This document shows positions 2-32,000 of a stretch of DNA of 32,000 nt, in pieces. The stretch's first letter is position 1, and the number at the start of each line of letters is the position of its first letter. Source of the stretch: Deferrisoma camini S3R1 (GTDB lineage Bacteria > Desulfobacterota > Deferrisomatia > Deferrisomatales > Deferrisomataceae); contig NZ_JAFN01000001.1 of the NCBI RefSeq assembly GCF_000526155.1, positions 3,070,264-3,102,263 on the forward strand. Direction: 5' to 3'. A program made the position numbers and the translations under genes. The notes under the pieces are model-generated. The model saw nothing but the letters and a program-made list of their open reading frames with translations. It was not told the origin of the DNA and ran no database searches.

Positions 2-631
2 GTGCTCCTGGAGCCGATCCAGGGCGAGGGCGGGGTGCGGGTGCCGTCGGAGGGGTACCTGCGGCGGGCCCGGGAGCTGTGCGACGTGCGCGGGGCGCTT
101 CTCATCCTCGACGAGGTCCAGACCGGGGTGGGACGCACCGGCACGTTCCTGGCCTGCGAGCACGACGGCGTGAAACCGGACATCTGCACCCTGGCCAAGG
201 GCCTGGGCGGGGGAGTGCCCATCGGCGCGGTGCTCGCCACCGAGGCCGTGGCCCGGAGCTTCGGCCCGGGCACCCACGCCTCCACCTTCGGCGGCAACCC
301 CCTGGTGTGCGCGGCCGCGCTCGCCACGGTGCGCACGATCCTCCAGGAAGGCATCCTGGAGCATACCCAGCGGATGGGGACATACCTGTTGGAGCGCCTG
401 ACCGAGCTGGCTCGGGGCCGCCCATGCATCTCGGCCGTGAGGGGCCGCGGGCTCCTGATCGGTATCGAGCTGGCCGGCGATCGCAAGGCCAAGGACGTGG
501 TGACCGCCATGATGGATCGGGGGTTCCTGGTGGGGTCGGCCGGTGAGCAGGTGGTCCGGCTCGCCCCACCGCTCATCGTGGAGCCGGAGGAGATCGACGC
601 CCTGCTCTCGGCTCTGGAAGAGGTGGTGTGA
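2..631 (+). CDS. argD: Acetylornithine aminotransferase, C-terminal part (5' end lies outside window)
   Basis: Class-III PLP aminotransferase motifs in translation (EPIQGEGG, LILDEVQTGVGRTG, TLAKGLGGG with PLP lysine, STFGGNP). It is the first gene of an argD-F-G-H run. Confidence 0.92.
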   Translation: MLLEPIQGEGGVRVPSEGYLRRARELCDVRGALLILDEVQTGVGRTGTFLACEHDGVKPDICTLAKGLGGGVPIGAVLATEAVARSFGPGTHASTFGGNPLVCAAALATVRTILQEGILEHTQRMGTYLLERLTELARGRPCISAVRGRGLLIGIELAGDRKAKDVVTAMMDRGFLVGSAGEQVVRLAPPLIVEPEEIDALLSALEEVV

Positions 632-648
632 GGGGGTGCAAGGTTTTA

Positions 649-684
649 GGCTTTCCAGCTTTCCGGCTTTCTAGCCTTCCAGCC
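649..684. repeat. 8-bp-period CT-rich tandem repeat (GGCTTTCCA GCTTTCCG GCTTTCTA GCCTTCCA) in the argD-argF spacer, just 5' of the argF SD
   Basis: Read directly from the sequence. Related copies at 1676-1702, 20696-20730 (reverse complement) and 20835-20881. Confidence 0.8.
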
Positions 685-698
685 GCAAGGTATCCGCC

Positions 699-1616
699 AT
701 GCCCAAGCACTTCTTGAAGCTCACGGACTTCGGCCGGGACGAGCTCCTCGGCATCCTCGAGCTGGCCCAGGATCTCAAGGCCCGCCAGGCCCGGGGTGAG
801 CCCCACCGCCTGCTGGAGGGCAAGACCCTGGCCATGCTGTTCGAGAAATCGAGCACCCGGACCCGGGTCTCGTTCGAGGTGGGCATGTTCCAACTGGGCG
901 GCCACGCCCTCTTTCTCTCGCCCCGCGACACCCAGATCGGCCGGGGCGAGCCCGTGCGCGACACGGCCCGGGTGCTGTCGCGGTACGTGGACGCGATCAT
1001 GGTGCGCACCTACGGCCAGGACGTGCTCGAGGAGCTGGCGCGCTGGTCGTCGGTGCCGGTGATCAACGGGCTCACGGACCTCGTGCACCCCTGCCAGGTC
1101 ATGGCCGACCTCCTGACCGTGCTGGAGCGGAGGGAAAGCCTGGAAGGGCTTCGGGTCGCCTGGATCGGCGACGGGAACAACATGGCCCACTCGTGGATCC
1201 ACGCGGCCCGGGTGCTGGGGTTCGGCCTGCGGCTGGCCTGCCCCGAGGGGTACGAGCCCGACGGGGCGATTCTGGCCGCGGCCCGGGACGCCGGAGCCGA
1301 CGTGGAGGTGGGCCGCGACCCCGAGTGGGCCGCGAGGGGCGCCCACGTGGTCACCACGGACGTGTGGGCCTCGATGGGCCAGGAGGAGGAGCAGGAGGCC
1401 CGGCGCCGCGCGTTCGCGGGGTACACCGTGGACGCCCGGATCATGGCCGCGGCCGACCCCTCGGCCGTGTTCCTCCACTGCCTGCCCGCCCACCGGGGCG
1501 AGGAGGTGACCGACGAGGTCCTGGAGGGGCCCCGGTCCGCGGTGTGGGACGAGGCCGAGAACCGCCTGCACGTGCAAAAGGCGATTCTGGTGCACCTGGT
1601 GCGGGAGGAAAACTGA
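699..1616 (+). CDS. argF: Ornithine carbamoyltransferase
   Basis: 305 aa with the STRTR carbamoyl-phosphate motif, HPCQ motif and HCLPA near the C-terminus. AAGG SD about 8 nt upstream of the ATG. Confidence 0.96.
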   Translation: MPKHFLKLTDFGRDELLGILELAQDLKARQARGEPHRLLEGKTLAMLFEKSSTRTRVSFEVGMFQLGGHALFLSPRDTQIGRGEPVRDTARVLSRYVDAIMVRTYGQDVLEELARWSSVPVINGLTDLVHPCQVMADLLTVLERRESLEGLRVAWIGDGNNMAHSWIHAARVLGFGLRLACPEGYEPDGAILAAARDAGADVEVGRDPEWAARGAHVVTTDVWASMGQEEEQEARRRAFAGYTVDARIMAAADPSAVFLHCLPAHRGEEVTDEVLEGPRSAVWDEAENRLHVQKAILVHLVREEN

Positions 1617-1654
1617 CCCCGAAAGGGAGGTGCGGGTACCGCGGGGGAAGAAAT

Positions 1655-1702
1655 CGACGAACGACCTCCGACCTCTCGGCTTTCCAGCATTCTAGCGCCT
1701 TC
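1655..1702. repeat. Composite short-period repeat in the argF-argG spacer: heptads CGACGAA CGACCTC CGACCTC, then GGCTTTCCAGCATTCTAGCGCCTTC
   Basis: Read directly. Combines both short-repeat families seen elsewhere in the window and sits immediately 5' of the argG SD (AAGGGAG). Confidence 0.6.
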
Positions 1703-1718
1703 AAGGGAGTGAACAACC

Positions 1719-2924
<1,206 letters not shown>

Positions 2925-2974
2925 GCAAAGGCCCTCCGGCGGTGCCCTCAAAGGGCGCTGTGGGATTGCCCCAG

Positions 2975-3136
2975 AGGGGTGAAGCCGGGGCCTCCTCCTC
3001 CGCTGAACACCCTCGCAGGGGCCGCCACGGTTCGGTCCGCTGCGACGCGTGATAGCACGCGCCGCGGCCGCTCCCTTGCACCGGGCGGCCCTTGCTGCTT
3101 GGGCGTCGCGCTCCGTCGGAGACCCCGGCTTCACCT
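2975..3136. repeat. Palindromic intergenic element (copy A) between argG and argH
   Basis: Terminal inverted repeat GGTGAAGCCGGGG (about 2978-2990) / CCCCGGCTTCACC (3123-3135). Architecture resembles the other palindromic elements in the window. Confidence 0.6.
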
Positions 3137-3247
3137 AAGTGATCCGTACTTTTCTTTCGAGGCATAAGGAAACGAGTCGCTCGGGTCTCGCGGGCGAAAC
3201 CGACGGTACGACCGCCTAATGTCCGGCGCGCCCTAGGGGCCCTGTTC

Positions 3248-3280
3248 GACCGTAGGCCGGAGACCGACGACCGAACCGAC
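3248..3280 (+). repeat. Heptad leader cassette (GACCGTA GGCCGGA GACCGAC GACCGAA CCGACAA) abutting the argH SD AAGGAAG
   Basis: 7-bp periodicity read directly. Near-identical core (GACCGTAGRCC..GACGACCGAA) to the cassette at 10186-10217. Confidence 0.65.
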
Positions 3281-3294
3281 AAGGAAGATTCCTC

Positions 3295-4692
3295 ATGGCC
3301 GAAAAACCCTGGGGCGGACGGTTTCGCGAAGAGACCCTGAGGATCGTCGAGCGGTTCACCGCGTCGATCGGGTTCGACCGGCGGATGTACCGCCAGGACA
3401 TCCGGGGGTCCATCGCCCACGCCCGCATGCTGGCCTCGGTGGGCATCCTGACCGAGGAGGAGGCCGACACCCTGGTCCGGGGCCTGGAGCAGGTGCTCGC
3501 CGAGATCGAGCGGGGCGAGCTGGAGCTCACCGAGAGCCTCGAGGACATCCACATGAACGTGGAGCACCGGCTCACCCAGATCGTGGGGCCGGTGGGCGGC
3601 AAGCTCCACACGGCCCGCAGCCGCAACGACCAGGTGGCCCTGGACCTGCGGCTGTACCTGGCGGACGAGGTGCCCGAGATCCTGGACCTGCTCCGGGGCC
3701 TGGGCGAGGTGCTGCTGGAGCGGGCCGAGGCCGAGGCCGACCTGCTCGTGCCCGGCTACACCCACCTCCAGCGGGCCCAGCCCGTGACCTTCGGCCACCA
3801 CTGGCTCGCCTACTTCGAGATGTTCCTCCGGGACATGGAGCGGTACCGGGACGCCCTCGGGCGGATCCGGCGCTCGCCCCTGGGGGCGGGCGCGCTCGCC
3901 GGGTCGCCCTACCCCCTGGACCGGGAGCGGGTGGCCCGGGACCTGGGGCTCGAGGGGGTGTGCCGGAACAGCCTCGACGCCGTGTCCGACCGGGACTTCG
4001 CCCTGGAGTTCCTGTTCGCCGGCTCGGTGGTGATGATGCACCTGTCCCGGCTGTCGGAGGAGCTGGTGCTGTGGTCGAGCCAGGAGTTCGGGTTCATCGA
4101 GCTCTCCGACGGGTTCTGCACCGGCTCCTCCATCATGCCCCAGAAGAAGAACCCGGACGTGCCCGAGCTCCTGCGGGGCAAGACCGGGCGGGCCTACGGC
4201 AACCTGATCTCGCTCCTGACGACGCTCAAGGCCCTTCCGCTCGCCTACAACAAGGACATGCAGGAGGACAAGGAGCCGGTGTTCGACACCCTCGACACGG
4301 TGAAGGGGAGCCTCGCGATCACCGTGGAGATGCTCCGGAACCTCAAGGTGCGGCCCGACCGGGCCCGGGCCGCGCTGAAGGCCGGGTTCCTGCTGGCTAC
4401 CGAGCTGGCGGACTACCTGGCGGCCAAGGGCGTGCCGTTCCGCCAGGCCCACGAGGCGGCCGGCCGGCTGGTGGCCCTGGCCGAGGCCCGGGGCTGCGGG
4501 CTCGAGGACCTGGACCTGGAGACCCTGCGGTCGGTGTCGCCGCTGTTCGAGGAGGACGTGTTCCAGGTGCTCGACCCCGAGGCGAGCGTGGCCCGACGCA
4601 CGGTGCTGGGCGGCCCGGCGCCCGACAACGTGCGCCGCGAGGCCCGGCTGGGGTGGGAGCGGCTCGATGCGATCTGGCCCCGGCGGGACTGA
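3295..4692 (+). CDS. argH: Argininosuccinate lyase
   Basis: 465 aa with KPWGGRF N-terminus and the fumarate-lyase family signature GSSIMPQKKNPD. Confidence 0.97.
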   Translation: MAEKPWGGRFREETLRIVERFTASIGFDRRMYRQDIRGSIAHARMLASVGILTEEEADTLVRGLEQVLAEIERGELELTESLEDIHMNVEHRLTQIVGPVGGKLHTARSRNDQVALDLRLYLADEVPEILDLLRGLGEVLLERAEAEADLLVPGYTHLQRAQPVTFGHHWLAYFEMFLRDMERYRDALGRIRRSPLGAGALAGSPYPLDRERVARDLGLEGVCRNSLDAVSDRDFALEFLFAGSVVMMHLSRLSEELVLWSSQEFGFIELSDGFCTGSSIMPQKKNPDVPELLRGKTGRAYGNLISLLTTLKALPLAYNKDMQEDKEPVFDTLDTVKGSLAITVEMLRNLKVRPDRARAALKAGFLLATELADYLAAKGVPFRQAHEAAGRLVALAEARGCGLEDLDLETLRSVSPLFEEDVFQVLDPEASVARRTVLGGPAPDNVRREARLGWERLDAIWPRRD

Positions 4693-25608: not shown

Positions 25609-27480
25609 TCACCCCCTTCGGCCCAGGGCCTCCAGGACCCACTCGGCGAGCCGGTCGTACACCTGGGCCGCGGCCTCGTCCACGTGGGGGCCGAGGCACT
25701 GCTCCTCGACCCGCTCCAGGTACCCGGCCCAGGCCCGCTCCAAGGCCACGGCCACCCCGGCCCGCCGGGCCGCCCCGCCCACCGCTCCGCCGGGCAGGAG
25801 CCGCTGCCACAGCCCCCCCGGCCGGCCCGGGCCCACCGTGCCCCGGAACAGGGGGATCTTCCGGGTGGCCGTGATCTCCCGGACCAGGGCCCGGCGATCG
25901 GGCGGAGGCGGAGGCCTCAGGCCGGCCCGGGCCAACGCCTCGGCCGCCTGCCGGGCCAGGTCCTCGCCCGCCCGGGCCAGGGCGGCCCGGGCCTCCAGGG
26001 CCAGGTTGCGCACCGCGTTCACCCGCAGGGGCTCGGTGGCCGCGAGCACGGCCTCGACCCGGTCGCGGTAGTCCGCCGCCGCAGGGTCGAGGGACGCCAC
26101 CCGTCCGGCCCAGGCCCGGCGGTGGGGTGCCCGGCGGCGGCCGAACCCGGAGCGAAGCCCCGCGGAGATCCCCGCCTTGGCCTGCCGGGCCGCGGCCTCC
26201 ATGCGCTCGGAGAGCCACCCCAGGAGCGCGTCGGCCGTGTCGGCCCGCCAGGGCCCCCGGCCCAGGCCGAGGGCCGTGCCGGCGCCCAAGGCCCGCCCCG
26301 CCTCCGCCACGACCCGCCGCAGGTCGGCCCGGCACCGGGCCAGGATCAGCCGGTCCCGCCGAGCGGCCACCTCGTCCCACAGCTCGTCCCGGAACGACCG
26401 GAACGCGTCCCGCAGGATCGGCGTGAGGGCCGAGGACTCCCACGCCTCCCGCAGCCGGGCCTCGCCGGCCGAGAGACCGGCCGGATTCGTCAGGGCCAGC
26501 CGGTCCAGGAGCCCGAGCAGGGCCGAGACCACGGCCGGCCGGCCGGCCACGCCCAGCCCCCGCAGGTGCCGAACCACCGACTCCTCCACCCGGCGCAGGT
26601 GCTCGGGCCGGCCCAGCTCGGACAGGTCGGCGTTCAGCACGAACCGGGTGACCCCCAGGAGCCCGTACCCCTGCAGGACCTCCAGGAACCGCAGGTCCGC
26701 CTCCCGGAGCCCCACCCGGCCCGAGATCACGTACACCACGGCGTGGGCGTCGAGGAGGGCCCGGTCCACCACGGCGCCGTGGGCCGCGTTCCAGGCGTCC
26801 ACGCCGGGGCAGTCGGCCAGCACCACCCCCTCGGGCAGGTCGGGCGCGGGCACGTCCACCCACACCCGGCTCAGGAACGCGGCCACCTCGTCCCGGGCCA
26901 CCCAGGCCCACAGATCGCCGTGCGCCCCCAGGTCCTCGACCCGGGGCTCCGGCCCCACCCGGTCGGCCGCGGCCTCGGCCCCCCGGACCAGGGCCCCCAA
27001 CGCCTCCCGAAGGGGCGAGGGCGGCCCGTCCAGCAGGGCCCGGGCCGCGCGCCGGTGGTCGGGGTTCCACAGGTCCCAGTCCCCCGGCCGGCCCAACGCC
27101 TCCAGGTGCAGGCCGAACGCCCGGTTCACCTCGGCCCGGCTCCTCCAGGTGATGCGGACCGCCGCCCGGTCCGCCGGCACCACCTCGGTCACCTGGGCCG
27201 TGAGCACCCCCGAGCCCCGGGGCAGCAGGTCCCGGCCCACCAGGGCGTTGGCCAGGGTGGACTTGCCCGACTTCACGGCCCCCACCAGGGCCACCCGCAC
27301 CCGGGCCTCGCAGGCCCGCCGGGCCGCGGCGTCCAGGTCCGCGAGCCATCCGGCCGCCCGGTCCGCCAGATCCGGCCGGGAGGCGGCGAGGGTCCGGAGC
27401 CTCTCCCGGGCCTCGGCCACGGCCCGCTCCACCTCGGCCCGCAGCCGCGCCTCCCGGGCCTGGCGCAGCGGCTCGGTCAC
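25609..27480 (-). CDS. Dynamin-family (bacterial dynamin-like) GTPase, soluble
   Basis: GTG at 27480 overlaps the Nudix stop (GTGA). G1 GAVKSGKST, G3 DCPGVD, degenerate G4 LNADL. Long Arg/Ala-rich helical stalk. No TM segment seen. Confidence 0.8.
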   Translation of the reverse strand: MTEPLRQAREARLRAEVERAVAEARERLRTLAASRPDLADRAAGWLADLDAAARRACEARVRVALVGAVKSGKSTLANALVGRDLLPRGSGVLTAQVTEVVPADRAAVRITWRSRAEVNRAFGLHLEALGRPGDWDLWNPDHRRAARALLDGPPSPLREALGALVRGAEAAADRVGPEPRVEDLGAHGDLWAWVARDEVAAFLSRVWVDVPAPDLPEGVVLADCPGVDAWNAAHGAVVDRALLDAHAVVYVISGRVGLREADLRFLEVLQGYGLLGVTRFVLNADLSELGRPEHLRRVEESVVRHLRGLGVAGRPAVVSALLGLLDRLALTNPAGLSAGEARLREAWESSALTPILRDAFRSFRDELWDEVAARRDRLILARCRADLRRVVAEAGRALGAGTALGLGRGPWRADTADALLGWLSERMEAAARQAKAGISAGLRSGFGRRRAPHRRAWAGRVASLDPAAADYRDRVEAVLAATEPLRVNAVRNLALEARAALARAGEDLARQAAEALARAGLRPPPPPDRRALVREITATRKIPLFRGTVGPGRPGGLWQRLLPGGAVGGAARRAGVAVALERAWAGYLERVEEQCLGPHVDEAAAQVYDRLAEWVLEALGRRG

Positions 27481-28097
27481 CGGCCCTCCCGGTGGAGGGC
27501 CCAGGCCAGCTCGGACCACAGCTCGAACCCAGCCCCCTCGGGAAGGGCCCCGGCGGGGTCGCCCGGGGGGGCCCACCGGTGGCCCCGCAGCTCACCGTCC
27601 CCGTCCCGGGCCGTGGCCGGGTCCACCGTGAGCCGGCAGCACACCCCCACGTGCACCCGACCCACCTCGGACTCGTCCTCGCTGATCAGCCCCACCACCT
27701 CCAGGCCGCCCAGCCACCGCACGGGGTACTCCTCCTCCACCTCCCGCCGGGCGGCCCGGGCCAGGAGCTTCGGCCCGGGGGCCTCGTCGCCGGCCGCGTC
27801 GGCCCGGTCGATGTGCCCGCCGATCCCCAGGCTCCAGAAGGCGTGGAGCCGCGCCTCGGTGCCCTGACGGGGGTAGACCAGCACCCGCCCGTCCGGGTCG
27901 AACACCGTGACGTAGGGGATCACCTGCTTCCACTCCGGGTCGGTCTCGGCCTCGGGCCGGGGCATCCACCGGGCCCGATCCAGGCCCAGCAGCCCGGCCG
28001 CCTCGGTCCAGGACCCGGCCGCGACCCAGGCCCGGGGGGCCTGCAGCGCCGGGTGCAGGGCGGTTCGGGGAACGACGAGAATCCTCTGGCTCTTCAT
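27477..28097 (-). CDS. Nudix-fold phosphoesterase of the YmaB/COG4112 type
   Basis: ATG at 28097 with GGAGG SD. WKQVIPYV, LHAFWSLGIGGHI, Nudix box remnant AARREVEEE and EVGRVHVGV, matching the COG4112 pattern as I remember it. Confidence 0.78.
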   Translation of the reverse strand: MKSQRILVVPRTALHPALQAPRAWVAAGSWTEAAGLLGLDRARWMPRPEAETDPEWKQVIPYVTVFDPDGRVLVYPRQGTEARLHAFWSLGIGGHIDRADAAGDEAPGPKLLARAARREVEEEYPVRWLGGLEVVGLISEDESEVGRVHVGVCCRLTVDPATARDGDGELRGHRWAPPGDPAGALPEGAGFELWSELAWALHREGR

Positions 28098-28162: not shown

Positions 28163-28209
28163 GGCACCAGAAGGGCCGGCCCTGATTGAGGGCCGGCCCT
28201 TCTGGTGCC
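28163..28209 (-). terminator. 20-bp perfect GC-rich hairpin (7-nt loop) immediately 3' of the small peptide ORF
   Basis: GGCACCAGAAGGGCCGGCCC (28163-28182) pairs perfectly with GGGCCGGCCCTTCTGGTGCC (28190-28209). No U-tract, so it could be a terminator, attenuator or RNA-stability element. Confidence 0.7.
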
Positions 28210-28216
28210 TCCAACG

Positions 28217-28279
28217 TCAGCAGGGATGGACGCTGGAGGTTCCCGCGATGCGGGGCTTTACGTAGGGGATCTTCTTCAT
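28217..28279 (-). CDS. 20-aa candidate precursor peptide MKKIPYVKPRIAGTSSVHPC
   Basis: The ATG (28279) overlaps the radical-SAM stop (ATGA). AAGGAGG lies 6 nt upstream. The ORF is followed 7 nt later by the 20-bp hairpin. The genomic context (PqqD + rSAM/SPASM) is typical of peptide substrates. Confidence 0.7.
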   Translation of the reverse strand: MKKIPYVKPRIAGTSSVHPC

Positions 28280-29328
28280 GGCGGTCCTCCTTGGGGCCGG
28301 CCGTTCCCGGCCCAGCAGTGGGGATCGGGGGCGTTGAACGAGCCCGTGGCCGCGAACGCCCGGGCGGTGCACCCGCCCAGACACTCGCCGTACACCCCGC
28401 AGGAGCGGCACTTGCCCTCCGGGGTCTTCTCGCGCATCTTCCGCAGCACCGGTGAGGTGCGCCACAGCACGTCCAGGGGCTGATCGATCAGGTTTCCGGC
28501 CGACACCGGGATGAACCCGCACGGGGTCACCTCGCCGTCGGGCTCCAGGTGCAGCGAGAGCTTGCCGCAGGTGCTGCCCTTCACGGCCCCGGGATCGGCC
28601 CCGCCCAGCAGGGCCAGGATCGGGTCGTCGAACGACAGCTCGGCCGGCGCCCGGGGCCGCCAGGCCAGGGCGTCCTCGTAGAAGGCCCGCCACTCGCCGG
28701 GCGAGAGATCGAGCTCCGCCCGGTTCTCGGCGCCCCGGCCCGCGCACTTGAAGTTGTGCAGGTACACCGTGGTCGCCCCCCGCTCGGCCGCGAGCTCCAC
28801 GATCCGGCGGTACGAGCCCACGTTGTTCCGGTGGATCACGGCCGACACCGTGGACGTCACCCCGGCGGCCCGCAGGTGCTCCAGGGCGGCCAGGGCCCGA
28901 TCGAAGCTACCCGGCCGGGCCCGGAACGCGTCGTGCACCTCGGCCGTGGCCCCGTCGAGGCTCACCCCCACCGAGGCGAACCCCGCGGCCCGGGCCCGCC
29001 GGGCCGCCTCGGCGTCCAGGAGCCACCCGTTGGTGTTCATGCTGACCCGCAGGCCCCGGTCCGCCGCGGCCCGGGCCACCTCCCACAGGTGGGGGTAGCA
29101 CAGCGGCTCGCCCCCCCCGAAGTTCACGAACAGCACCCGGCACCGGGCAAGCTCCTCCACCAGGCCCAGCACCCGCTCCAAGGGGAGCTCCGACCGCGCC
29201 TGGCCGCGGGAGTAGCAGTGCCGGCACGAGAAGTTGCAGGTGTAGGACAGGGTCCAGTTGACGGTGAGGGGTGCGGTGAGCTCCACGGTCAGGCGTCCTC
29301 GGCCACGAGCCAGCCCCGGCTCAGGCAC
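28276..29328 (-). CDS. Radical SAM enzyme with a full C-terminal SPASM domain (peptide-modifying maturase type)
   Basis: CNFSCRHC (CxxxCxxC). SPASM pattern C-x10-G-x4-C ... CRSC-x5-C-x3-C ... C. An alternative GTG at 29286, 2 nt after the PqqD stop, would give a 337-codon gene. Confidence 0.92.
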   Translation of the reverse strand: MPEPGLARGRGRLTVELTAPLTVNWTLSYTCNFSCRHCYSRGQARSELPLERVLGLVEELARCRVLFVNFGGGEPLCYPHLWEVARAAADRGLRVSMNTNGWLLDAEAARRARAAGFASVGVSLDGATAEVHDAFRARPGSFDRALAALEHLRAAGVTSTVSAVIHRNNVGSYRRIVELAAERGATTVYLHNFKCAGRGAENRAELDLSPGEWRAFYEDALAWRPRAPAELSFDDPILALLGGADPGAVKGSTCGKLSLHLEPDGEVTPCGFIPVSAGNLIDQPLDVLWRTSPVLRKMREKTPEGKCRSCGVYGECLGGCTARAFAATGSFNAPDPHCWAGNGRPQGGPP

Positions 29329-29609
29329 TCGGCCACGAACGCCTCCACGTCCTCGCGGATCTCGTCGGCCGGGGCGTCGTACCGGCCCGCCAGCTCGGCC
29401 GCGATGGCGGCGGCGTCCCGGGTGCCGTCGGCCAGGAGCCAGATCTCCCCGGCCAGGAGGTTCAGCTGGTGCATCCGACCGGCGTGGACCAGGATCACCC
29501 AGCCCTCGTCGGCCACGTCCTCGCCCCGCTCCAGGGCGGCGAGGATCCGCTCCCGGGCCCCGGGCTCGTCGCGCCAGGCCAGCGAAGGGTTTCGGCGAAG
29601 CACGGTCAC
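29289..29609 (-). CDS. Stand-alone PqqD-family peptide-binding (RRE) protein
   Basis: 106 aa. LNLLAGEIWLLADGTRDAAAIAAELAGRYDAPADEIREDVEAFVAECLSRGWL fits the PqqD family pattern. GTG start 5 nt after the upstream lipoprotein stop. Confidence 0.85.
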   Translation of the reverse strand: MTVLRRNPSLAWRDEPGARERILAALERGEDVADEGWVILVHAGRMHQLNLLAGEIWLLADGTRDAAAIAAELAGRYDAPADEIREDVEAFVAECLSRGWLVAEDA

Positions 29610-29614
29610 GGCGG

Positions 29615-30487
29615 CTACTTCTTCCTTTCCGGCGTGCCCCAGGGGACGGGCAGCCGGGGCTCCACGTTCACCCGGCCCACCCCTTCGGAGTCGGCGCCGT
29701 CGAAGATCCGGTCGGCGAGCCGGCCCTTCTCGTCGGCCTTCCACCAGTTGTTTCCGGCGTCCACGTCGTCGGTCTGGGCCTCGCCGAGCTTCAGATCGTA
29801 CTCCCGATCGTCGAAGTTGTTTCGCCGCAGCACCGCGCCGGTCACGCCCTGCCGGAAGAAGATGCCGGTGAGGTTGCCCACGAACCAGTTCTCCTCGATC
29901 ACCGGCGAGCTGTTGAGGCACCGGATCCCGATCCGGTTCTCCTCGAACCGGCACCCCCGGATCACCACCCGGCCCCCCTGGAACCGCACCCCGCCGTAGT
30001 TGTTGCGGAACGTGCAGTCCTCGAACTCCACCGGGGTGAAGTGGCTGTGCACGGCCCACGGGCCCCGCTCGAACACCACCCGCCGCAGGTGGGCCTCCTT
30101 GGCCTTTTCGAAGGAGATCACGTCCTCGAACTCGTTGTTGCGCAGGGGCACCGAGGTGATCTCGATCGGCGCCTCCGGCGTGCCCAGGGCCACCAGGCTC
30201 CCCAGCACCCGGATCCACGGCTCCGGGTCCTCGCCGGCCTTGGGCTCGGGCAGATCGAAGTACACGCGGGTGCCGGGCAGGAGGGTCAGGGTGGCGGTCT
30301 TGGTCACGATGAGGGGCCGAACCAGCCGGACCTCCCCGCGCCACACCGTGGGGGCGTAGAGGATGTGCCGGGTCTCGGTGCGGGCCGTGGCCGGGACCGA
30401 GATCGTCTTGGGCTGGGGCAGGGTCACGCACGCCGCGAGCCCCACCGCCGTCGCCGCCCCCAGGAGCCACCATCGCCGCAGACCCAT
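29615..30487 (-). CDS. Lipoprotein with right-handed parallel beta-helix repeats (NosD/CASH-like)
   Basis: Signal peptide with lipobox GLAAC. PbH1-like repeats (FRNNYGGVRFQGG, IRGCRFEENRIGIRC, IEENWFVGNLTGIFF, LRRNNF). GGAAGGAGG SD. Confidence 0.8.
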   Translation of the reverse strand: MGLRRWWLLGAATAVGLAACVTLPQPKTISVPATARTETRHILYAPTVWRGEVRLVRPLIVTKTATLTLLPGTRVYFDLPEPKAGEDPEPWIRVLGSLVALGTPEAPIEITSVPLRNNEFEDVISFEKAKEAHLRRVVFERGPWAVHSHFTPVEFEDCTFRNNYGGVRFQGGRVVIRGCRFEENRIGIRCLNSSPVIEENWFVGNLTGIFFRQGVTGAVLRRNNFDDREYDLKLGEAQTDDVDAGNNWWKADEKGRLADRIFDGADSEGVGRVNVEPRLPVPWGTPERKK

Positions 30488-30656: not shown

Positions 30657-31715
30657 TCAATGGGACCGGGCCGAGGCGCCCAGACCCAGGAGCGCAGCCA
30701 GCCCGACCAGCACCGCCACCTTCCCGGCCGCCGGCACTCCGGCGGCCGACGCGCCCAAGCCCCAAACCTGCACGAGCACCGCGCCCGCGCCCATGCCCAC
30801 CACCGTGGCGGCCGCGTCCAGGTCGCCCTCGCCGGCCCGCACGATCTGCCGGAACGGACACCCGCCCGCCACCACGGCGGCCGCGCCCACCAGCCCCATC
30901 CCCAAAAAGCTCCACAGCCACTCCAGGTGGGCGCCGGGCTGGTCATAATAGCCAAGCCGGAACTGACCCGTAAACCCGTCGGCCAACCCGGCCGCCGCGA
31001 GCAGCCCTCCCAGGGCCAGGACCGCCCCCGGGCTGCGCACGAGCAGGATGTCGCGCACCGACCCGGTGATGCAGAACCGCGATCGCTGACAGGCGACCCC
31101 GATCGCCAACCCCGCGGCCAGGCTGATCCAGACCGGGGCGTGGAGCGCCCCGGGCCCGCTCCGGCTCTCCAGCAGGATCCCCGGCCGGAACAGGAGAGCC
31201 GTGAGGACCAGGGCCCCCACGACCAGCCCTGCGGGCACCAGCCACGGCACCGGCCGGGCCCGGCCGCCGCCATCCAGGTCGCCCCGCCGAACCAGGCGGA
31301 GCCCCCCCCACACCCCGGCCACCAGGCCCACCGCCCCGGCCACGGCGGTCAGGTCCCCGGCGGCGAGCCGCAACATCATCTTGATCGGGCAGCCGATGAA
31401 CACGGCCGAGCCCACGATCATCAGGAGCCCCAGGCCCAGCAGGTGGGCCCCGGCCGCTCGGGCCCGCGGCCGGAACTCCCGCGCGGCCAGGGCGGCGGCG
31501 GCACTGCCCAGGAAGAACCCCAGGAGCTCGGGCCGCAGGTACCGCATGCGGGGGTTGGGGTGCAGCCCCAGGGCGCCCACCGCGTTCTCCAGGAAGCACG
31601 AGATGCAGATCCCCGTGTTCGGCGGATTGCCCCAGTAGGCCAGGAGGCTGCCGAACAGCCCCATCAGGAGCCCGGCGGCCACGATCCACCCGTGCCGGGC
31701 CAGTCTCCCCCTCAT
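30657..31715 (-). CDS. yedE: YedE/YeeE-family transporter (putative selenium/sulfur-compound transporter)
   Basis: 352 aa polytopic protein. N-terminal YWGNPPNTGICISCFLENAVGALGLH and later GGCPFRQ match the YedE selenium-metabolism subfamily as I recall it. Confidence 0.8.
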   Translation of the reverse strand: MRGRLARHGWIVAAGLLMGLFGSLLAYWGNPPNTGICISCFLENAVGALGLHPNPRMRYLRPELLGFFLGSAAAALAAREFRPRARAAGAHLLGLGLLMIVGSAVFIGCPIKMMLRLAAGDLTAVAGAVGLVAGVWGGLRLVRRGDLDGGGRARPVPWLVPAGLVVGALVLTALLFRPGILLESRSGPGALHAPVWISLAAGLAIGVACQRSRFCITGSVRDILLVRSPGAVLALGGLLAAAGLADGFTGQFRLGYYDQPGAHLEWLWSFLGMGLVGAAAVVAGGCPFRQIVRAGEGDLDAAATVVGMGAGAVLVQVWGLGASAAGVPAAGKVAVLVGLAALLGLGASARSH

Positions 31716-32000
31716 TCGCACCCCCCCGCCAGCCGGCGCTGGAGGGCGTAGAGCTCTCGGATCTCCGGCGGCCGTCGGGTCGCCCACGGCCCCTTCCGGA
31801 TCGAAGCCAGCCGCTCGGCCATGCGCTCGCCCGACCGGAACGGTCCGTTCCGGTCGGCCACGGCCGGGTTCTCGTCCACGGCCCGGCCGTAGGCCCGCAC
31901 CGCCTCGGCCCACGCCCCCTGGCGGTAGGCCGCCTCGCCCAGCCAGAACCACGCCCACGCAGGGTACGGCCCGGAGCGGGCCCTCTGTCGAAGATCCAGC
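31712..32000 (-). CDS. TPR-repeat protein, C-terminal part (5' end outside window)
   Basis: The frame stays open to the window edge. WFWLGEAAYRQGAWAEAVRAYGRAVDENP is a canonical TPR motif. Stop overlaps the yedE ATG (ATGA). Confidence 0.6.
   Translation of the reverse strand, partial: LDLRQRARSGPYPAWAWFWLGEAAYRQGAWAEAVRAYGRAVDENPAVADRNGPFRSGERMAERLASIRKGPWATRRPPEIRELYALQRRLAGGCE

Follow-up and report, generated by a model that had tools for sequence, protein, structure and literature searches.

Does the 20-codon open reading frame (ORF) that follows a radical S-adenosylmethionine (SAM) gene in Deferrisoma camini S3R1 encode the substrate of the enzyme upstream of it, and to what kind of system would the two then belong? 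The locus lies in a 32,000 nucleotide (nt) stretch of contig NZ_JAFN01000001.1 (assembly GCF_000526155.1, positions 3,070,264 to 3,102,263), hereafter the window, in which an initial annotation made from the sequence alone had proposed a compact four-gene operon encoding a candidate new ribosomally synthesised and post-translationally modified peptide (RiPP) or peptide-derived cofactor system. We favour, with moderate confidence, the reading that this locus is a reduced and divergent version of GeoRSP, namely a radical SAM peptide-maturation cassette dependent on a RiPP recognition element (RRE), with the short peptide as its putative substrate. The GeoRSP enzymes had already been named; what appears to be new is the conserved peptide family as a candidate substrate, and the setting of the cassette in an array linked to the transporter gene yedE.

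Profile searches of the proteins encoded in the window used the Pfam and NCBIfam/TIGRFAMs models with their curated cutoffs. Gene context was compared across 80 genome loci, referred to by L numbers, which were fetched around homologues of the radical SAM enzyme; 77 of these could be evaluated for a downstream peptide.

Conservation of the peptide gene

The four minus strand ORFs, and the hairpin behind them, were found where the initial annotation had placed them. The last ORF (28217..28279, minus strand) encodes the candidate precursor peptide MKKIPYVKPRIAGTSSVHPC, 20 amino acids (aa) in length, which belongs to a family with the pattern Y-x-K-P-x3-G-x3-V-H-P-C-stop, or M-K-K-..-Y-x-K-P-x3-G-x3-V-H-P-C when written from the N terminus. 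Its ATG overlaps the TGA of the radical SAM gene (28276..29286, minus strand) as ATGA, and the sequence AAGGAGG lies 7 nt 5' of its start. The initial annotation had proposed that orthologous clusters be inspected for a short ORF ending in Cys; such an ORF is indeed conserved there beyond chance, as a peptide ending in [V/I]HPC-stop is encoded on the same strand, 0-260 nt past the radical SAM stop codon, in 53 of the 77 evaluable loci, with substitutions of the coding type. Three divergent lineages retain the order of the two genes: in the Deferrisoma type they overlap as ATGA; in the Desulfuromonadales type the order is radical SAM-peptide-SPASM; and in a third (L073, L110, L123 and L199) the radical SAM enzyme has 48% identity. 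The ATGA overlap, together with adjacency in lineages of differing gene order, therefore argues for a selected linkage between the enzyme and the peptide.

Coding character was assessed on 55 peptide loci, comprising 52 distinct nucleotide versions. Entropy summed by codon position was 6.4, 6.5 and 21.0, the third position thus having around three times the value of positions 1 and 2, and the ratio of nonsynonymous to synonymous polymorphism (pN/pS) was approximately 0.10. The flanks of the ORF are near-random, at 1.9-2.0 bits per position, with the exception of the Shine-Dalgarno region, and a Shine-Dalgarno-like motif precedes 54 of the 55 copies. By these patterns the short ORF looks translated and evolves under purifying selection, and it is linked to the radical SAM gene across divergent lineages.

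The total collection of peptide genes amounts to 168 loci, which encode 105 distinct sequences, each 17-20 aa long. None of the 105 departs from Tyr(-15), Pro(-12), His(-3), Pro(-2) or the terminal Cys, and at least 97% conserve Lys(-13), Gly(-8) and Val(-4). The peptides are rich in Lys and Arg, lack acidic residues and, in 104 of the 105 variants, contain a single Cys. By all the annotation consulted, this conserved Y-x-K-P...V-H-P-C family is an unannotated one. Three variants had no match to any Pfam or NCBIfam model, in keeping with the earlier impression that the peptide resembles no precursor family; the exact D. camini peptide is not in a collection of 15 billion proteins, and an exact look-up of ten peptide forms of at least 20 aa returned as its sole match an accidental, unnamed call extended to 47 aa. 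The gene falls in an uncalled annotation gap in two annotated genomes, and a search for the C-terminal strings of the peptide in the searchable literature found nothing.

Profile hidden Markov model searches of six-frame translations found no divergent variants within 6 kb in the GeoRSP loci lacking the peptide, and no second peptide copy was found within around 7 kb of any locus. The replacement of the final Cys by selenocysteine, encoded by TGA, was considered and rejected, as no '...VHP-stop' segment scored in the search of the peptide-less loci.

Beginning 7 nt past the peptide stop codon is a hairpin (28163..28209, minus strand) with a perfect 20 bp GC-rich stem and a 7 nt loop, for which folding gave a free energy of -54.9 kcal/mol (z = -7.0 versus shuffled sequences). 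It has no U-tract and was not called by a terminator scan, which misses it because the T-run is absent; hairpins having T-runs occupy the equivalent position after the peptide in Desulfuromonadales loci. Comparison of the peptide gene and hairpin with Rfam gave sub-threshold matches to generic hairpins, and none at the gathering score.

Family assignment of the enzymes

The enzyme encoded immediately upstream of the peptide matches the Radical_SAM and SPASM models of Pfam, and its best family is TIGR04303 (GeoRSP_rSAM), at 394.5 bits, which does not reach the cutoff of 400. The runner-up families are MftC (213.7 bits, cutoff 265) and AhbD (192 bits, cutoff 500), followed by NirJ2 and NirJ at 167 and 154 bits, the cutoffs for AhbD/NirJ-type families being 500-515. 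Scores were lower again for StsB (123 bits, cutoff 625), PqqE (119 bits, cutoff 381) and the anaerobic sulfatase maturase model TIGR03942 (71.4 bits, cutoff 349); StsB- and ScmE/F-type peptide maturases are among the weaker matches, and QhpD is not among the top family matches listed. With the scores against the sulfatase maturase, AhbD, MftC and PqqE models all below the cutoffs, the enzyme is not assigned to a characterised family having a non-peptide or large-protein substrate. Such an assignment, or the lack of a conserved short ORF in orthologous clusters, would by the initial annotation have refuted its proposal, and neither was found. The closest solved structures are PqqE (6C8V), BlsE and SkfB, at only around 71 bits. 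The CX3CX2C motif and the complete set of SPASM cysteines can be read in the sequence, and these cysteines are invariant in the comparison of homologues. Either of two GTG codons could be the start: that at 29286, 2 nt after the PqqD stop, gives a protein of 336 aa, and that at 29328 one of 350 aa. The former is likelier because the alignment to TIGR04303 begins at residue 17 of the longer ORF.

The gene upstream (29289..29609, minus strand) has a GTG start 5 nt beyond the stop codon of the lipoprotein gene and encodes a PqqD-family RRE, or peptide chaperone, of 106 aa (Pfam PqqD, 7.7e-17). Its best match is TIGR04302 (geo_PqqD_fam), at 73 bits not reaching the cutoff of 100; the PqqD of Geoalkalibacter halelectricus is likewise below this cutoff, at 94.8 bits. 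The D. camini protein does pass the cutoff of TIGR03859 (PQQ_PqqD; 49.9 bits, cutoff 46), with no pqq genes present, and is therefore at risk of being mislabelled by automated pipelines as a component of pyrroloquinoline quinone (PQQ) biosynthesis.

Judged on these profile matches, the enzymes belong to GeoRSP, a named but uncharacterised family, of which D. camini has a borderline or divergent member. Homologues 56-80% identical to the radical SAM enzyme already carry the GeoRSP name, and the NCBI name of the D. camini protein, to which the enzyme from the window is 100% identical, is generic. The idea that the enzymes form an unrecognised family consequently has to be given up, the best models being those of a system that the initial annotation had itself named for testing. 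We found no paper on GeoRSP in the literature, and no precursor model for it among the NCBIfam and Pfam models searched. The logic of the triad, in which a discrete PqqD or RRE protein accompanies a radical SAM/SPASM enzyme resembling PqqE or MftC and a very short peptide, holds, and corresponds to what is generally required of RRE-radical SAM systems, namely that the gene for a short ribosomal precursor be linked to those for an RRE and a modifying enzyme. As the PqqD gene is retained in 77 of the 80 loci, a peptide substrate is to be expected, and the VHPC peptide is probably the missing substrate of GeoRSP.

The extended array

The genes of the compact operon are as first described; however, they are a fragment of a larger conserved array, which also includes genes for YedE, a TPR protein with a GGCE tail and a PhnD-like binding protein. 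Besides PqqD in 77, the 80 loci encode YedE in 72, the PhnD-like periplasmic binding protein in 63, a beta-helix relative in 62, the TPR protein in 61, a SPASM-only paralogue (TIGR04304) in 61 and an EF2568-type cysteine desulfurase (TIGR01977) in 54. The second-best family of the desulfurase is the selenocysteine lyase SclA, and the PhnD-like protein has weak similarity to selenate-binding and tetrathionate-sensor domains.

The first gene of the compact operon (29615..30487, minus strand) encodes a beta-helix lipoprotein of 290 aa with NosD-type repeats. Its signal peptide ends with LAAC as the lipobox, and both Pfam matches, Beta_helix (39.3 bits) and NosD (27.7 bits), are above gathering scores. 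Its 55 homologues are mostly from Deferrisomatales and other Thermodesulfobacteriota, and its relatives in the context sample support the earlier suggestion that it is a conserved partner; two beta-helix paralogues lie upstream in Desulfuromonadales arrays. The AlphaFold model is an all-beta solenoid (predicted local distance difference test score, pLDDT, 94.2; predicted template modelling score, pTM, 0.87), for which Foldseek found only weak matches in the PDB, to generic beta-helix proteins. The lipoprotein is thus NosD-like in repeat and fold, and is not a NosD orthologue.

The YedE-family putative selenium transporter is 352 aa long from an ATG at 31715 (30657..31715, minus strand); it matches Pfam Sulf_transp and passes the cutoff of TIGR04112 (seleno_YedE) with 333.7 bits against 200, the equivalents in L017 and L202 scoring 403-404 bits. 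The loci in which YedE does not adjoin the GeoRSP cassette are contig ends and the rearranged L077. YedE has been tied to selenium use by comparative genomics, selenium transport itself being a prediction (PMC5322559). The yedE ATG overlaps, again as ATGA, the stop codon of the TPR gene, the 3' part of which (31712..32000, minus strand) is in the window, its ORF continuing past the window end. The encoded protein (Pfam TPR_2, 31.6 bits) has the C-terminal tail ...YALQRRLAGGCE-stop; the consensus is ...Y-x-L-Q-x-R-L-A-G-G-C-E, and RLAGGCE-stop is found in 56 of the 65 loci in which the gene was detected. A homologue in L081 (8007-8555) has 182 aa and, by reading of its sequence, an N-terminal membrane anchor. 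The GGCE tail is a second conserved C-terminal Cys element, and could serve as a partner of YedE in a sulfur or selenium relay or as an alternative substrate of the radical SAM enzyme.

In the complete genome of G. halelectricus, the array runs from a sigma-54 regulator through a 177 aa protein, two NosD-like proteins, the PhnD-like protein, the GGCE-tailed TPR protein, YedE, PqqD, the radical SAM enzyme, the peptide, the SPASM-only protein and the desulfurase to a 91 aa protein, which is a lipoprotein by reading of a homologue. The Deferrisoma-type array is reduced: a single gene for a beta-helix lipoprotein separates those for YedE and PqqD, and the SPASM-only protein and desulfurase are not encoded nearby. 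No SPASM-only (TIGR04304) partner was found downstream in the window, where a NUDIX gene stands instead, or in the Deferrisoma-type group. The PhnD-like protein and the hypothetical protein hyp177 lie just past the window edge, according to a 97% identical metagenome-assembled genome (L001) and related loci. A relationship between hyp177 and protein cluster C13 was weak (25% identity, pairwise E = 1e-4) and is not relied on. By a criterion that is our own rather than a curated one, the TPR-GGCE, YedE and beta-helix neighbourhood in the window matches that of GeoRSP members scoring above threshold. The absence of a protease or peptide exporter that had been reported for the operon extends to the whole of the window and the extended array, as does that of the accessory genes of PQQ and mycofactocin synthesis, pqqB/C/F and mftD/E/F.

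In Desulfuromonadales the extended array opens with a gene for a sigma-54-dependent response regulator (L081:2965-4338 and 20 other loci), suggesting signal-responsive expression. Of the loci with ample sequence upstream, L077 (6001-6738, CP070682.1) alone has neither PqqD nor YedE; it may be a shortened or rearranged copy, as the radical SAM match begins at residue 83. Downstream of the hairpin in the window are a NUDIX-domain gene (27477-28097, minus strand) and a gene for a 655 aa dynamin-family GTPase (25609-27576, minus strand), which are considered to lie outside the system because, among the 80 loci, they are conserved only in L001. At the other end of the window (2-4692, plus strand) are four ORFs with high third-position GC content, by eye resembling argD, argF, argG and argH. 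No CxxCH-rich ORF was found in the window.

Peptide copies outside GeoRSP

The peptide family is not confined to this cassette. A scan of metagenome contigs anchored on the back-translated peptide motif alone found at least 120 loci, all encoding proper family members. Among the matches listed, a GeoRSP radical SAM gene was directly upstream in 18, or around 21 when counting contigs that end just upstream. The commonest context in these matches was provided by giant Geobacter-type multihaem cytochromes having the TIGR01904 domain, with 12-35 CxxCH motifs and lengths of up to 2,846 aa (for example in L084, L101, L109, L115, L146 and L166). Some copies trail, or lie convergent to, a gene for a BchE-like B12-binding radical SAM protein (L202:8486-10215, L128 and L168; TIGR02026 401 bits, cutoff 481). 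The 20 aa subtype that resembles the D. camini peptide is found in loci of 68-72% GC (L091, L099, L107, L151, L152, L161, L182, L183 and L196), between genes for a PMT-like membrane protein and a small secreted protein, followed by a U32/UbiU/TrhP-like gene; loci of this type may be the place of the peptide in D. camini relatives that lack a copy adjacent to GeoRSP. The peptide ORF is always behind a gene on the same strand, and the next gene is often convergent.

L202 carries a canonical, Geobacter-type GeoRSP cluster, its radical SAM protein scoring 492.8 bits even though incomplete and its SPASM-only protein 336.4 bits. There is no peptide between these two genes; one copy lies 6.7 kb away, where the BchE-like gene adjoins a CbiM/ECF cobalt transporter. 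Such a distant peptide may explain why the curated GeoRSP cassette lacks a precursor model. The isolate IMCC39146 (GCA_030005635.1) has two peptide genes on different contigs, neither of them annotated: one is beside GeoRSP (L055:7133-7186) and the other behind an HDIG gene (L206:3632-3688). In loci syntenic for HDIG and BaxI the peptide is absent from L203 and L204, and L205 retains a frame-broken remnant (3567-3794).

A number of these observations weigh against the peptide being the substrate of a GeoRSP enzyme in D. camini. Around 24 of the 77 evaluable GeoRSP loci lack a peptide over a distance of 6 kb; among the matches listed from the peptide-anchored scan, 98 loci have 300 nt or more of sequence on the upstream side, and in 80 of these no GeoRSP radical SAM gene is directly upstream, at least around 35-40 copies lie 20-110 nt behind giant multihaem cytochrome genes, and others trail FG-GAP, HDIG or CarboxypepD-reg-like genes. 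As to the enzymes, both are slightly under the curated GeoRSP cutoffs, no SPASM-only partner is encoded in the window, and the radical SAM protein is only a little closer to MftC than to AhbD and NirJ, which are tetrapyrrole enzymes. The link to selenium depends on the name that bioinformatics has given the YedE family, and a role for sulfur would fit equally well.

Because most of the listed copies lie elsewhere, the peptide could work independently of GeoRSP. It might then be a small protein that trails operons, such as a thiol- or metal-binding or electron-transfer factor, with the GeoRSP enzyme acting on another substrate, for instance the RLAGGCE tail or a peptide encoded at a different site. 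We regard this as unlikely, yet as the best of the alternatives. The prevalence of the cytochrome context speaks for it, as do the retention of PqqD in the GeoRSP loci without a nearby peptide, the near-invariance of the GGCE tail as another terminal Cys element, and the gain and loss of copies, of which the remnant in L205 is a decayed example. Against it stand the adjacency to the radical SAM gene in three divergent lineages, culminating in the start-stop overlap in D. camini, and the fact that, of the recurrent neighbours, GeoRSP alone brings together an RRE and a modifying enzyme. Scattering away from the maturase gene and the presence of multiple copies are, moreover, normal for the precursors of RiPPs and of peptide-derived cofactors. 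The GGCE tail in particular may be periplasmic, given the membrane anchor read at the N terminus of the TPR protein, and would thereby be kept away from a cytoplasmic radical SAM enzyme.

Alternative roles for the ORF and the enzyme

The location of the hairpin raises the question of whether the short ORF is instead a regulatory peptide, causing ribosome arrest or attenuation, with the hairpin controlling the transcription or translation of the neighbouring genes. The fixed spacing between the invariant residues and the stop codon, the Pro-Cys-stop ending and a length of 17-20 aa, which would fit the ribosomal exit tunnel, would all suit such a role, as would a stable hairpin directly 3', often with a T-run, and the position of the Desulfuromonadales ORF just 5' of the SPASM-only gene. 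However, the next gene is frequently on the opposite strand (protein clusters C28, C76 and C182, and a TPR lipoprotein), so there is often nothing downstream to regulate, and for this reason the attenuator model is ranked low. In D. camini the ORF comes last in the operon, with translational coupling to the radical SAM gene, and regulation by a nascent peptide leaves the presence of an RRE unexplained; we consider this role improbable.

Slightly more improbable again is that the substrate of the enzyme is something other than a peptide, for example a tetrapyrrole as with AhbD or NirJ, and that the peptide is unrelated to the enzyme. AhbD, NirJ2 and NirJ are among its top families, AhbD is the second-best family for the enzyme in L202, and the peptide is often associated with haem-rich cytochromes; but the scores are far under the cutoffs of those families, and no genes for tetrapyrrole or haem d1 biosynthesis are present in the array. 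A dedicated PqqD or RRE gene immediately upstream of the radical SAM gene, in nearly all the loci sampled, also argues against a non-peptide substrate, since the RREs characterised so far are, to our knowledge, all peptide-binding.

The least probable of the explanations considered is a secreted antimicrobial RiPP of a conventional kind, such as a sactipeptide or ranthipeptide: a Cys-containing substrate, a full SPASM domain and weaker matches of the StsB and ScmE/F type accord with it, but almost all variants have a single Cys, conservation across orders covers the entire peptide, putative core included, genes for a leader protease, an ABC exporter or immunity are absent from the window and extended array, and the neighbours are transport and trafficking genes.

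Comparison with known systems

The preferred reading, in which the VHPC peptide is matured by a GeoRSP-type cassette, was compared with systems of known or named type. GeoRSP itself (TIGR04302, TIGR04303 and TIGR04304) provides the best profile matches for both proteins and the same synteny of YedE, TPR-GGCE and PhnD-like genes, as in the canonical cluster of L202; the D. camini locus differs in having a beta-helix lipoprotein between YedE and PqqD, in the translational coupling of the peptide gene to the radical SAM gene, and in lacking the SPASM-only partner and desulfurase.

The mycofactocin system (MftA/B/C) likewise combines a short peptide having an invariant last residue with a discrete PqqD-type RRE and a radical SAM/SPASM enzyme. 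MftC oxidatively decarboxylates the C-terminal Tyr of MftA, in a reaction dependent on the RRE MftB (PMC8728441). The D. camini enzyme is under the MftC cutoff, its peptide ends in HPC whereas MftA ends in GVY, and the peptide gene is downstream of the maturase gene, in a different context that is devoid of mftD/E/F.

PQQ biosynthesis (PqqA/D/E) shares the logic of the triad, PqqE is among the closest structures, and precursor genes are multi-copy in both cases, as pqqA genes also occur in several copies. The PqqE score is nevertheless less than a third of its cutoff, no genes for PqqA/B/C/F are nearby, and the invariant Tyr of the peptide has no conserved Glu partner. The SPASM maturases that form thioethers, in sactipeptides, ranthipeptides/SCIFF and QhpD substrates, resemble the D. 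camini enzyme in having a full SPASM domain and a Cys-containing peptide; they differ in that scores against them are low, and in that the D. camini-type peptide has a single Cys, an invariable core and no associated protease or exporter.

The lipoprotein can be set beside NosD of the NosDFY system, with which it shares the Pfam NosD repeat region, a right-handed beta-helix and, by its lipobox, an extracytoplasmic location. NosD has been described as a carrier protein of the periplasm that the Cu-sulfide CuZ site requires (PMC8457098). Unlike NosD, the lipoprotein scores just 20.9 bits against TIGR04247 (cutoff 300), has 290 aa compared to around 377 model positions, is not encoded near genes for NosF, NosY, NosL or NosZ, and does not have NosD among its top Foldseek matches. 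Finally, the formation of aminovinylcysteine by LanD/EpiD offers an analogy of working alone, in that a ribosomal peptide with an obligatory last Cys is used; there are no lanthipeptide genes in the D. camini array. Enzymes of the LanD/EpiD type are HFCD-family flavoproteins rather than radical SAM proteins.

Proposed mechanism

Were the peptide the substrate of the cassette, PqqD would bind the Lys/Arg-rich N-terminal part of the 17-20 aa chain, around Y-x-K-P, and present it to the radical SAM/SPASM enzyme. This would then modify the invariant C-terminal V-H-P-C, in which Cys is necessarily the last residue. As to the chemistry, decarboxylation of the C-terminal Cys, possibly followed by a cross-link, is tentatively ranked first, because the obligatory terminal Cys parallels the Tyr of MftA and because, of the characterised families that modify peptides, MftC is the nearest; a Cys thioether is ranked second.

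The product could be a chalcogen-linked cofactor or carrier, a role likelier than that of an antibiotic because the whole peptide is conserved across orders, the genes are multi-copy and no protease or exporter accompanies them. The neighbouring genes, for YedE, the selenocysteine lyase-like desulfurase, the PhnD-like oxyanion-binding protein and the NosD-like proteins, suggest trafficking of selenium or sulfur. At its fullest, the proposal would be that VHPC peptides are the GeoRSP substrate and that maturation at their C-terminal Cys yields a new cofactor or carrier, a thiol or selenol derived from the peptide, which links YedE-dependent uptake of selenium or sulfur with an extracytoplasmic redox machinery of NosD-like proteins and giant multihaem cytochromes. 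This is speculative, and we hold it with slightly less conviction than the decarboxylation chemistry.

Implications

GeoRSP has been catalogued without an assigned substrate, and a defined, easily synthesised candidate makes the system directly testable. The near-constant association with YedE and a selenocysteine lyase-like desulfurase suggests that one step in the trafficking of selenium or sulfur is peptide-based, in a field whose carriers are poorly known. The peptide family is carried by metal- and sulfur-reducing Desulfuromonadales, Deferrisomatales and their relatives, and its genes, which in many metal reducers follow giant multihaem cytochrome genes, have escaped gene callers as well as the Pfam and NCBIfam models tried; this suggests an overlooked small-gene family in organisms important for extracellular electron transfer, and would still be a widespread conserved small ORF should the peptide prove to be unmodified. 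If the fullest version of the proposal is true, GeoRSP would be the third pathway, after those for PQQ and mycofactocin, in which a PqqD protein and a radical SAM enzyme produce a peptide-derived cofactor.

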